Assembly (NCBI RefSeq): GCF_003991155.1
Contig: NZ_CP031293.1
Reading direction: 5' to 3' (one strand)
From: Escherichia coli
Lineage (GTDB): Bacteria > Pseudomonadota > Gammaproteobacteria > Enterobacterales > Enterobacteriaceae
Length of the DNA stretch: 64,000 nt
Shown here piece after piece: positions 57,001 to 63,000 of this stretch. The first letter of the stretch is position 1. Each line of letters begins with the position of its first letter. The position numbers are program-made.

Positions 57001-60000
57001 GCATCCTCTGTTTCTGCCGGGCACAGCGCCCTGCTTTCTGCAGGTAACGACCTGAGTCTGAATGCAGTCAGGGAAAGCAAAAACAGTCGCAACGGCAGGT
57101 CAGAAAGTCATGAAAGCCACGCAGCTGTGTCCACGGTGACAGCGGGCGATAACTTCCTCCTTGTTGCCGGTCGTGATATTGCCAGTCAGGCTGCCGGTAT
57201 GGCTGCGGAAAATAACGTGGTCATCCGGGGCGGACGTGATGTGAACCTGGTGGCAGAGTCTGCCGGCGCAGGCGACAGCTATACGTCGAAGAAAAAGAAA
57301 GAGATTAACGAGACAGTCCGTCAGCAGGGAACGGAAATCGCCAGCGGTGGTGACACCACCGTCAACGCAGGACGGGATATCACCGCTGTTGCGTCATCCG
57401 TTACCGCAACCGGCAATATCAGCGTGAATGCCGGTCGTGATGTTGCCCTGACCACGGCGACAGAAAGTGACTATCACTATCTGGAAACGAAGAAAAAAAG
57501 CGGAGGTTTTCTCAGTAAGAAAACCACCCGCACCATCAGTGAGGACAGTGCCACCCGTGAAGCAGGCTCCCTGCTGTCGGGGAACCGCGTGACCGTTAAC
57601 GCCGGTGATAACCTGACGGTAGAGGGTTCGGATGTGGTGGCTGACCGGGATGTGTCACTGGCGGCGGGTAACCATGTTGATGTTCTTGCTGCCACCAGTA
57701 CAGATACGTCCTGGCGCTTTAAGGAAACGAAGAAATCCGGTCTGATGGGTACCGGCGGTATTGGTTTCACCATTGGCAGCAGTAAGACAACGCACGACCG
57801 GCGCGAGGCCGGGACAACGCAGAGTCAGAGTGCCAGCACCATCGGCTCCACTGCCGGTAATGTCAGTATTACCGCGGGCAAACAGGCTCATATCAGCGGT
57901 TCGGATGTGATTGCGAACCGGGATATCAGCATTACCGGTGACAGTGTGGTGGTTGACCCGGGGCATGACCGTCGTACTGTGGACGAAAAATTTGAGCAGA
58001 AGAAAAGCGGGCTGACGGTTGCCCTTTCCGGCACGGTGGGCAGTGCCATCAATAATGCGGTTACCAGTGCACAGGAGACGAAGGAGAGCAGTGACAGCCG
58101 TCTGAAAGCCCTGCAGGCCACAAAGACAGCGCTGTCTGGTGTGCAGGCCGGACAGGCTGCGACAATGGCCTCCGCAACCGGTGACCCGAATGCGATGGGA
58201 GTCAGCCTGTCGCTCACCACCCAGAAATCGAAATCACAACAACATTCTGAAAGTAACACAGTATCCGGCAGTACGCTGAATGCCGGGAATAATCTGTCTG
58301 TTGTCGCAACCGGTAAAAACAGGGGCGATAACCGCGGAGATATTGTGATTGCCGGAAGCCAGCTTAAGGCCGGTGGTAACACAAGCCTGGATGCCGCGAA
58401 TGATATTCTGTTGAGTGGCGCCGCAAACACACAAAAAACAACGGGCAGGAACAGCAGCAGTGGCGGTGGCGTGGGTGTCAGTATCGGTGCCGGTGGTAAC
58501 GGTGCCGGTATCAGCGTCTTTGCCGGCGTTAATGCGGCAAAAGGCAGCGAGAAAGGTAACGGTACTGAGTGGACTGAAACCACAACAGACAGCGGTAAAA
58601 CCGTCACCATCAACAGTGGTCGGGATACGGTACTGAACGGTGCTCAGGTCAACGGCAACAGGATTATCGCCGATGTGGGCCACGACCTGCTGATAAGCAG
58701 CCAGCAGGACACCAGTAAGTACGACAGTAAACAGACCAGCGTGGCTGCCGGCGGCAGTTTTACCTTTGGCTCCATGACCGGCTCAGGTTACATCGCTGCC
58801 TCCCGGGATAAGATGAAGAGCCGCTTTGACTCCGTTGCTGAACAAACCGGAATGTTTGCCGGTGATGGTGGCTTCGACATTACAGTGGGCAGACATACCC
58901 AACTGGATGGTGCGGTGATTGCCTCCACTGCCACACCGGATAAAAACCACCTGGATACCGGAACGCTGGGGTTCAGTGACCTTCACAACGAAGCGGATTA
59001 TAAAGTCAGTCACAGTGGAATCAGTCTGAGCGGTGGTGGCAGCTTCGGGGATAAATTTCAGGGTAACATGCCGGGTGGCATGATATCCGCCGGAGGTCAC
59101 AGCGGACATGCGGAAGGAACGACTCAGGCCGCAGTGGCAGAAGGCACTATCACCATCCGGGACAGGGACAATCAGAAGCAGAATCTGGCGAACCTGAGCC
59201 GTGACCCTGCGCACGCTAATGACAGTATCAGCCCGATATTTGACAAGGAGAAAGAGCAGAGGCGTCTGCAGACAGTGGGGCTTATCAGTGACATAGGCAG
59301 TCAGGTGGCGGATATTGCGCGTACACAGGGAGAACTGAATGCGTTGAAGGCCGCGAAGGAAGCAACCGGCGAAACACTTCCTGCTAATGCAACAGAGAAA
59401 CAACGTCAGGAATATCTTGCGAAACTGCGTGACACGCAGGCTTACAGGAATGAAATGGCGAAGTATGGTACCGGCAGTGAAATTCAGCGGGGTATCCAGG
59501 CCGCGACAGCCGCGCTTCAGGGACTGGCGGGTGGTAATTTAGCGGGTGCTCTGGCCGGAGCTTCTGCACCGGAACTGGCGCATCTGCTGAAATCAACAGA
59601 AAAAGACCCGGCAGTAAACGCCATTGCTCACGCCATTCTGGGCGGTACAGTAGCGGCAATGCAGGGTAATAATGTTGCTGCTGGTGCAGCAGGCGCAGCA
59701 ACGGGAGAGCTGGCAGCCAGAGCGATTGCCGGAATGCTGTATCCGGGAGTGAAGCAGTCAGACCTCAGTGAAGAGCAGAAGCAGACGATAAGTACGCTGG
59801 CAACTGTGTCAGCAGGGCTGGCCGGCGGTCTAACCGGAAACAGCACCGCATCAGCAGCAGTGGGAGCACAGAGCGGGAAGAATGCTGTTGAGAATAACTA
59901 CCTGAGCGTGTCTGAAAAGACAGAACTTGAGATAGCAAAACAGACGCTTAAAAACAGTAAAGATCCGGCAGAGCGTGAAAAGGCACAGCAGAAATATGAT

Positions 60001-63000
60001 GCATTGCTTGAAAAAGATATTGCCAGTGATAAGGAGGTTATTGCTGCCTGTAGTAATGGTAATGCGAGTAGTTCAGCGTGTGCCAGCGCAAGACTGAAAG
60101 TTATTGCGTCGAAAGAAGGGTACGAAGATGGCCCTTATAACTCGAAATACAGCCAGCAATACGCTGATGCGTATGGTCAGATAGTCAATCTCCTCGATAT
60201 CACCAGTGTTGATGCACAGAATCAGCAGCAGGTGAAAAACGCCATGATTAACTATTTCATGGTCACCAAAGGGGTGGATCGTCAGACCGCAGAAAGCTAC
60301 ACCGAAACAACGCAGGGCTTGGAGATCATTGCGGCTTCGGTAACGCCTCTTATAGGGCAAGCTGCATCAAATAAATTAAGCTACCTTGGTATTGGGAAAA
60401 AGATATCCTTTGATGGTGATTTTTATACTGTAGATGGAATGAAATTCAGCAAAAGTTATTATGAGAAATTATGGGAGCAAGGCAGACCTGCGCCATTCGT
60501 GCAAGCAAGAGAAGTGTTGAATAGCAATCCAAAAATTGAGCCGGATCCTAGAGGCGCACCTGGCTACTTAAGATATGAAGGTGCAGGTCTTGAAATGATC
60601 TATAACCCGAAAACGGGACAAGTTGGTCATATTCAACCAGTCAAGGTTAAATAAAAAGAGGAAGTAAATGGATATTTGGCCTGAATTTCAACGAGATCTT
60701 GAGATGTATCGAGATGTTGTTTTATCAATAAAACGTAACCTTCGGTTGTATGAGGAGTGTATTGAATCGTTAGTTCATCAGATCGGAAGCACCAATTTTG
60801 ATAATGCGCAGCCTCTATTTGATGACCTCTTTCGTATGCAATCTGAACTTGCTACTATGTTATACAAATATGAATATAAGCCAGGAAAAAGGATACAAGA
60901 TTTAATATATCATCTGGACAGGGATGATTTTTACTCAAGAAAATATTGGCATAAAAAATTCAGTGATGGATTGGCATGGCCTGAATAATAGAAGTAGAAA
61001 TCCCGCCCTCAGTTAGCGCTGAGGAATCCCTAGTAATGGGCGGGTAAAAAAGACAGGCATAGAGTTTTGTGATCTACTGATTTGTGCAACCAATTCAATG
61101 AGATCGCTTCTATGCCTGCTCGACAAGTATGTCAGAATTTTTTCCACGATGCGTTAGCACCGTTTCACAAATACCGACAAAATGCTTTGCTGGATGCCAC
61201 CATCGCTCTCATCAATGGCGCATCACTGACGTTGACCAGCATCGGGCGTTATTTACCCGGCTTGGCTCGGGTCAAAAATAAAATCAAACGCGTTGACCGA
61301 CTGCTCGGTAATGAATCTCTTCACCGCGATATCCCACTGATTTTCAATAATATTATTGCCATGCTGACTAGCCAGCTATCTCTTTGTGTCATCGCCGTTG
61401 ACTGGAGTGGATATTCATCTCAGGAGCATCATGTGCTCCGCGCCAGCCTGCTCTGCGATGGATGCTCGCTTCCCCTGTTAAGCTGGGTAGTCCCGTCAGA
61501 AAAACAGCAGAACTCGCAGATACAAAAAAACTTCCCAGATGCCCTTGCCGAGGCTGTAAACCCTGTGGCCAGAGTCATAATAGTTACCGATGCGGGTGTT
61601 CTTACCCCCTTATTTCCAGACAGGGGCTGTATCTTAAGTTAACATTACCCGCTGACGTCGATATTCTCGCGGAGAGCGATAACCCAACGCACTATGCGGA
61701 TGGTTTTCATTGTAATGCTCGATCGCCACTGCAAGGTTTATATTGCCTGTTCATCGATCATCAATCTCGTGAACTGTGAGACGAAACAGCGTACACTGTT
61801 TGAACGTATCTACTTTTCCCAATACTGGGCGAAGGGAGATGTTATTGCGAAGCGCGCTCCAATTAGTCAGTGGGAACCTTATTCGGAAGAGTCACTGCTT
61901 GTCATCATCGTCACCAGCGTCTGTCGTATTAAAGTCGCGATGCTAAAACCTGAACCTCCCAGAGATCCCCATATCCCGCTAATGGGGGATTTTAACTAAA
62001 ACTTAGCGCTATCGCTGCATATTGTAACTATCCCGCATCACGTATGCATAAATTATGACGCCATACGGGGAACAAATACACAGAGGAAGAAAAAGATTAG
62101 ATTGGTTTTAAGGGATTTTTTATCATAAATGGCGCTGCTAAAATTATGAGATTATCGAAGATAAAATTCTTGATCATACATAAAAGGCCTCCTGAATTAA
62201 ATCAAGAGGCGTATAGTTTTTATATTACTGATGTATGTTTAATGATCTCACTGATTTTCACTTTCCTGTCCTGCGATCTTGAAAGAGTGGCAGCATCAGC
62301 AGTAGCAATCGCCGACATGGCCGCCTCACCATTGAGAAGGTCAATATAATCTTCTTCAGGTTTTGCACCACTGAGGATATTATGGAGGAATAACGTCTCC
62401 TTTCTTATTAAACTGGCAAGCCATAATGGTGTTTTTTTTCCAGGATGACCATATGCTATAGCGCCATCCATTTCTGAGGTCATATTGCCTTTCCGACGAT
62501 CATCATCTTCTTCTTGTGTTTCATGGACCAAAAAATGCTTTGTCTGACCGCCAATCCTAAGTGACCCTGCTGTTTCTTGCATATCAATTTTAATAGAGCC
62601 TTTAGTTCCATTGATGATGACATAATGTTCTGGCCAGTTAAATGCACTCCCCCACTCTAAGGTTGCTAGTTTTCCTGACGGGAATTCCAAGGTCATAAAT
62701 AACATATCATCTTCATTGCCAAACCCTAGACCAGAATGAGCTAAATTTCCACCAATCATAGTAACCGTCTCTGGTATTTCTCCAAGTAAATGCTGAACAC
62801 AATCTAACTCATGTATATGATGATATAGATGTCCACCAGATTGTTCTTTCATCTTTTTCCAGGAAAGTCTCTCCTGTTTGTTTTCCCAGCCATTTCTCTT
62901 GGTATGACATGATAATATTTCGCCGATAACACCTTCTTTAATTAACTTCCGTGCATATTGAACTCCATTGAAAAAATTCATAATATGCCCAGCCATAAAG

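Follow-up and report, generated by a model that had tools for sequence, protein, structure and literature searches.

Layout of the locus

The window analysed here, a stretch of 64,000 nucleotides (nt) of Escherichia coli DNA (contig NZ_CP031293.1, assembly GCF_003991155.1), carries a contact-dependent inhibition (CDI) locus, cdiBAI. We focus on its 3' end, which encodes the C-terminal region of the effector (CdiA-CT, hereafter CT) and the immunity protein CdiI. The features of the locus are the following.

49003-50775, plus strand: cdiB, outer-membrane transporter of two-partner secretion (TPS), 590 residues (open reading frame (ORF) list; RefSeq annotation of the identical DNA of strain Rb-3)
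50788-60654, plus strand: cdiA, CDI effector of 3288 residues in an intact frame (ORF list; RefSeq annotation of identical DNA)
59887-59898, plus strand: VENN motif, start of the CT and strongest GC changepoint (sequence and translation; changepoint analysis; start of homology in strain 89-3156)
59887-60375, plus strand: cytoplasm-entry (translocation) domain of the PtsG-dependent type, Val1-Lys163 (match to 6VEK_A; DUF6862; NC101 trypsin boundary; GC 0.458)
60376-60654, plus strand: BECR-fold tRNase toxin domain, Leu164-Lys255, with the stop codon (identity to 5I4Q/5I4R chain A; published residues)
60484-60486, plus strand: codon of Arg200, in the toxin domain
60628-60630, plus strand: codon of His248, in the toxin domain
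60658-60662, plus strand: GAGGA, Shine-Dalgarno (ribosome-binding) site of cdiI, 5 nt before its ATG
60668-60988, plus strand: cdiI, four-helix immunity protein of 106 residues (identity to 5I4Q chain B; GC 0.352)

The three genes occur in the order cdiB-cdiA-cdiI, all on the plus strand, and combine a TPS transporter with a very large FHA-repeat effector, as is characteristic of the E. coli type of CdiBAI. The VENN motif (codons GTT GAG AAT AAC) is in frame with the 3288-residue ORF and lies between the conserved CdiA body and the variable CT, where a GC changepoint and a homology breakpoint coincide. It is followed by 251 residues, so that the CT is 255 residues long when counted from Val1, the first residue of the motif; this numbering is used throughout. 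The gene cdiI begins 13 nt past the cdiA stop codon. An initial annotation, made by inspection of the sequence, had already recognized a CdiA-CT/CdiI toxin-immunity module here, with VENN at 59887-59898, a 251-residue C-terminal region and a downstream ORF of 106 residues. The sequence and its translation confirm these coordinates and gene calls, and the reading as a toxin-immunity module is right.

Window positions 45400-64000 match the chromosome of E. coli Rb-3 base for base. RefSeq names the three products in this identical DNA as a ShlB/FhaC/HecB family hemolysin secretion/activation protein, a ‘contact-dependent inhibition effector tRNA nuclease’ and a hypothetical protein. In the interval 60300-61300, the promoter and terminator scan returned no terminator and a single promoter-like site, fewer than expected by chance. 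The Rfam scan of the whole window at gathering thresholds gave no match in or near the CT and cdiI. A minus-strand ORF at 60073-60360 (95 residues, TTG start) lies inside cdiA and was treated as spurious.

Identity of the toxin and its immunity protein

The CT and the cdiI product were used as phmmer queries in a search of PDB sequences, which identified both proteins. CT residues 164-255, the only part of the CT spanned by chain A of PDB entries 5I4Q and 5I4R, are identical to that chain at 92 of 92 positions (E=3e-59). The cdiI product is identical to chain B at all 106 positions (E=1e-71). The two entries represent the ternary EF-Tu/CdiA-CT/CdiI complex of E. coli NC101 (Michalska et al. 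2017, NAR, PMC5737660). Tyr192, Gln198, Arg200, Asp220, Glu236, His248 and Gln250 are all found in the window translation at the published NC101 positions; of these, Arg200 and His248 are essential in the active site. Residue 163 is a lysine, as at the NC101 Lys163/Leu164 trypsin site (corresponding to nt 60375/60376), the CT has the same length, and the cognate immunity gene directly follows the toxin. No difference from NC101 was found in the parts compared (residues 164-255 and CdiI), while the host strain may differ, as the window matches Rb-3 over 45400-64000. Based on these data, we assign the 3' end of this intact cdiBAI locus to the NC101-type EF-Tu-dependent CdiA-CT tRNase and its CdiI, with a probability of about 95%; no observation speaks against this assignment.

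The NC101 system has been characterized in detail (PMC5737660). Trypsin cuts off a ‘translocation’ domain (Val1-Lys163), leaving a domain of about 9.9 kDa with the BECR RNase fold, structurally nearest to BrnT, colicin D and colicin E5. This domain contacts domain 2 of EF-Tu, and both EF-Tu and EF-Ts are required for its activity in vitro. It cuts tRNA-Glu, Asp, Asn, Ser and Arg(UCU) after C72, so that four 3' nucleotides are lost, its specificity being for tRNAs with a guanine discriminator. Activity is lost upon either Arg200Ala or His248Ala substitution. CdiI is a four-helix protein, in which Asp84 touches both Arg200 and His248, and it neutralizes the toxin. In contrast to its structural neighbors, with which it shares no detectable sequence similarity, the NC101-type toxin cuts at the acceptor 3' end rather than in the anticodon loop, depends on EF-Tu and EF-Ts and is paired with an unrelated immunity protein. 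Thus, tRNase activity, cofactors, structure and immunity have all been published for proteins identical to those encoded here; for the present strain, we infer activity and expression.

It might be argued that the small C-terminal domain is an uncharacterized toxin paired with a novel immunity protein, as the initial annotation had it when it left the toxin activity unassigned. On profiles alone the pair does look this way. The Pfam scan of the CT detected only DUF6862, in the entry domain, and left the toxin domain without a match; CdiI had no Pfam match even at E<=10; and the NCBIfam scans of the CT, of the toxin domain alone and of CdiI matched no family. Computational surveys had likewise overlooked the NC101 toxin domain as a BECR member (PMC5737660). 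Nevertheless, both proteins are identical to the 5I4Q/5I4R chains, their activity, cofactors and active site are published, and the RefSeq name of the gene is already that of a tRNA nuclease, which together make a new toxin exceedingly improbable. A confident match to an already characterized CdiA-CT/CdiI pair, which the initial annotation had named as grounds for rejecting its proposal, is provided in full by NC101. The toxin/immunity pair is therefore already known, and no new assignment is needed. Since neither Pfam nor NCBIfam has a model for the toxin or CdiI, the assignment is based on PDB identity and published work, not on a profile family, and the same lack of models explains why the domain could not be placed at first. 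The profile search that had been proposed as a check came out empty for both proteins, whereas the PDB sequence search resolved them.

Beyond a correct annotation, the assignment has little significance, as the NC101 pair already has solved structures and a defined mechanism. It does carry a caution: profile searches alone leave the NC101-type toxin and CdiI falsely ‘unassigned’.

The cytoplasm-entry domain

The phmmer search also revealed the relationship of the N-terminal part of the CT. Residues 1-174 match 6VEK_A, the CdiA-CT of E. coli 3006 (strain EC3006; E=1.6e-73), with the likeness fading past about residue 160, and Pfam DUF6862 maps onto residues 10-80 (E=4e-10). This type of entry domain carries an aromatic residue behind VENN, and its Cys55 and Cys65 form a disulfide (PMC9424206). 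In the window translation Tyr5 directly follows VENN, and Cys55 and Cys65 are both present, as they are in the 3006 domain. PtsG dependence has been reported for the NC101, 3006 and STEC_O31 entry domains (PMC9424206; for 3006 and NC101 also PMC5371414), and null alleles of ptsG make cells resistant to the 3006 and NC101 toxins (PMC5371414, citing earlier work). From the NC101 report we infer that the entry domain of this strain depends on PtsG as well. Its agreement with the NC101 entry domain is one of length and numbering, the PDB chain lacking residues 1-163.

The likeness to the 3006 CT is confined to its homologous, PtsG-dependent entry domain. There, it is followed by another BECR tRNase, which acts specifically on tRNA-Ile and is paired with a different immunity protein. 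According to the literature, entry-domain identity is about 70%, with divergence mostly in helix alpha-9 (PMC9424206).

Composition of the locus

To describe the composition of the module, we compared the GC content of its parts with that of the cdiA body. GC is 0.564 in the 9.1 kb of cdiA before VENN, 0.458 in CT residues 1-160, 0.393 in CT residues 161-255 and 0.352 in cdiI. These steps (0.56/0.46/0.39/0.35) therefore place the big break at VENN. Accordingly, a single changepoint placed anywhere in 58000-61000 fits best at 59878, at VENN (delta lnL, the gain in log likelihood, of 34). Windows of 480 nt taken from the cdiA sequence ahead of VENN never go lower than 0.494, so that the entry domain, with which the CT begins, stands 4.2 standard deviations low. 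The initial annotation had held that the first 150 or so CT residues keep the GC-rich composition of cdiA. This does not agree with the data: because the main changepoint is at VENN, their composition (0.458 versus 0.564) is unlike that of the cdiA body.

A second break, proposed at about 60350, is partly borne out. The end of cdiA and cdiI are indeed AT-rich, and the best changepoint inside 59887-60988 falls nearby, at 60366. However, it is weak (delta lnL 4.9, reached in 64 of 1000 triplet shuffles), and within the CT coding sequence alone the changepoint is not significant, being reached in 652 of 1000 shuffles. The difference between the entry and toxin parts lies mainly at third codon positions, where GC (GC3) is 0.46 versus 0.32 (Fisher p=0.025), compared with 0.456 versus 0.432 at first and second positions (GC12); for overall GC p=0.08. 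The composition, which the initial annotation had suggested to check along the locus, is thus non-uniform, with the main break at 59878 rather than at about 60350. On composition alone, the internal GC break near 60366 is suggestive; it becomes convincing only together with the comparative breakpoints and the trypsin boundary.

These figures leave room for a simpler view, in which the GC step near 60350-60366 reflects chance or amino-acid composition, and the CT and cdiI represent one imported block bounded at VENN. In favor of this view are the shuffling results (652/1000 within the CT; a marginal 64/1000 across the CT and cdiI) and the p value of 0.08 for overall GC. On the other hand, the difference is found at synonymous sites (GC3), and the changepoint at 60366 falls between a homology breakpoint in strain 89-3156 (about 60347) and the domain boundary (60375/60376). 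In other genomes, moreover, the entry DNA is joined to a deaminase-like toxin (95% identity) or to another RNase toxin (95-96%). Both arrangements, described below, contradict a single block, and we regard it as very unlikely.

Modular structure and distribution

Among 5426 complete E. coli genomes used for comparison, 73 contain the entire CT (68-73 contain the identical module, annotated as a CDI effector tRNA nuclease), and 683 contain parts of it. Two other occurrences bear on modularity. Strain 89-3156 (record L002, 1498-2797) has an orphan module with homology only to window positions 59887 to about 60347, at 95% identity; there is no homology upstream of VENN, and past the breakpoint the module goes on into a cytidine-deaminase-like toxin and a DUF6911 immunity gene. 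Strain STEC17-190 (record L003) has a full-length cdiA that is homologous from upstream of VENN to about 60240 and then continues into another RNase toxin and an RNase-immunity CdiI; here, too, entry-domain DNA is joined to a different toxin, at 95-96% identity.

Since homology in strain 89-3156 starts at VENN and stops at about 60347, the entry domain is itself a mobile cassette bounded at these two points. Because its DNA is linked to other toxins in both strains, the entry and toxin parts have been exchanged independently. Judging from the DNA, the CT region is a three-layer mosaic of the cdiA body, the entry domain and the toxin with cdiI, with junctions at VENN and at about 60347-60376, as is usual for the modular exchange of CDI systems. 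Three markers of the entry/toxin junction fall within about 30 nt of each other: the end of homology (60347), the GC changepoint (60366) and the proteolytic boundary (60375/60376). The initial annotation had envisaged a swapped toxin and immunity cassette joined to a resident, GC-rich entry domain. The bipartite CT, the exchangeable cassette and a junction near 60350-60376 all stand; the entry domain, however, is neither resident nor GC-rich.

It is possible, though we hold this only tentatively, that the entry domain and the toxin with cdiI were acquired separately, from donors whose DNA is richer in AT than the cdiA body, and that the donor of the toxin and cdiI lay outside E. coli. If true, separate low-GC donors would add detail to the accepted modularity of CDI systems rather than point to a new kind of system. 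As a by-product, the locus offers a clean example of this modularity, in which composition, homology breakpoints and the proteolytic boundary agree within about 30 nt (60347-60376).

The same CT is also found in damaged form. In GF153 a CT copy is cut by an insertion sequence (IS), an IS3 element, at about 60490. Truncated copies of the CT are common in other genomes and plasmids, and 124 nt separate cdiI from a downstream IS4-family transposase pseudogene, with further IS fragments nearby. The question thus arises whether the present locus is a silent or decaying remnant as well. We consider this improbable, as no interruption is present in cdiB, in the 3288-codon cdiA or in cdiI, the toxin domain and CdiI have the same sequences as experimentally active proteins, and the IS debris lies outside the operon.

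The orphan module of strain 89-3156 sits directly downstream of another full-length cdiA. IS-truncated orphan CT copies are present in other chromosomes (L004, about 2103-3295; L007, 2501-4239), one interrupted by IS3 at the equivalent of window position 60490 or so and another, after 290 nt, by IS21. More than 300 records of E. coli plasmids contain a stretch 98% identical to the first 255 nt of the CT (window 59887-60141; for example, L006, 2163-2753). In these records it constitutes a ‘VENN motif pre-toxin’ pseudogene with a frameshift, whose end coincides exactly with the start of a truncated repA, next to arcA/arcC. The plasmid copies represent a fossil fragment of cdiA that is widespread on plasmids of the IncF type. 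About 2-5 kb past the end of the window, on the identical Rb-3 chromosome (L001, 20527-23713), orphan pre-toxin genes with a VENN motif form a cluster with small ORFs, one of them for a DUF596 protein; nanXY and transposase fragments lie between this cluster and cdiBAI.

Proposed mechanism

The model outlined here combines the identity, boundaries, residues, composition and breakpoints established above with the activity, cofactors, structure and immunity known from published work. CdiB would export CdiA to the cell surface. Upon contact with a target E. coli cell, the CT, starting from VENN, would be delivered to the periplasm and cleaved off. The entry domain (Val1-Lys163) would then use the inner-membrane glucose transporter PtsG to bring the C-terminal domain into the cytosol. 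There, the 92-residue BECR-fold domain (Leu164-Lys255) is expected to bind domain 2 of EF-Tu and, together with EF-Tu, EF-Ts and GTP, to cut guanine-discriminator tRNAs (Glu, Asp, Asn, Ser, Arg-UCU) after C72, with Arg200 and His248 as the essential active-site residues. Loss of the 3' GCCA from these tRNAs would stop translation. In sibling cells, CdiI would bind the toxin, with Asp84 reaching Arg200 and His248, and thereby protect them.

Neighboring features

Downstream of cdiI, a nested hairpin is present at 61002-61044 (CCCGCCC...GGGCGGG around CCTCAG..CTGAGG). It is followed at 61054-61118 by a 10-nt perfect inverted repeat, CAGGCATAGA/TCTATGCCTG, that extends across the start of the IS4-family fragment. 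A terminator with a T-run was not found here. The region between cdiI and nanY (61112-62177) is occupied by IS and pseudogene debris, listed here according to the RefSeq annotation of identical DNA.

61112-61615: IS4-family transposase pseudogene
61634-61738, minus strand: integrase-core fragment
61715-61999: ORF of the surface-adhesin E family
62053-62177, minus strand: frameshifted ythA

Over the first 50 kb (window 1-49978), the window and the Rb-3 chromosome (L005) differ at 77 positions. The differences listed all fall within about the first 350 nt, in gspK/gspL, a pattern that would fit a patch of recombination at the gsp end.

Two Rfam matches lie in other parts of the window. An IS102 RNA match (74.4 bits; 29333-29569, minus strand) is located immediately upstream of the agn43 autotransporter gene, in an island that also holds a CbtA/YeeU toxin-antitoxin pair, an antirestriction gene and YfjI-family genes. 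A JUMPstart RNA element (RF01707, 58.5 bits; 2815-2853, plus strand) heads a block of very low GC (0.29-0.35; 2000-9000), which encodes an ABC transporter, galE, a hypothetical protein of 760 residues and an O-acetyltransferase and is followed, on the opposite strand, by conserved capsule export genes of the kps type.

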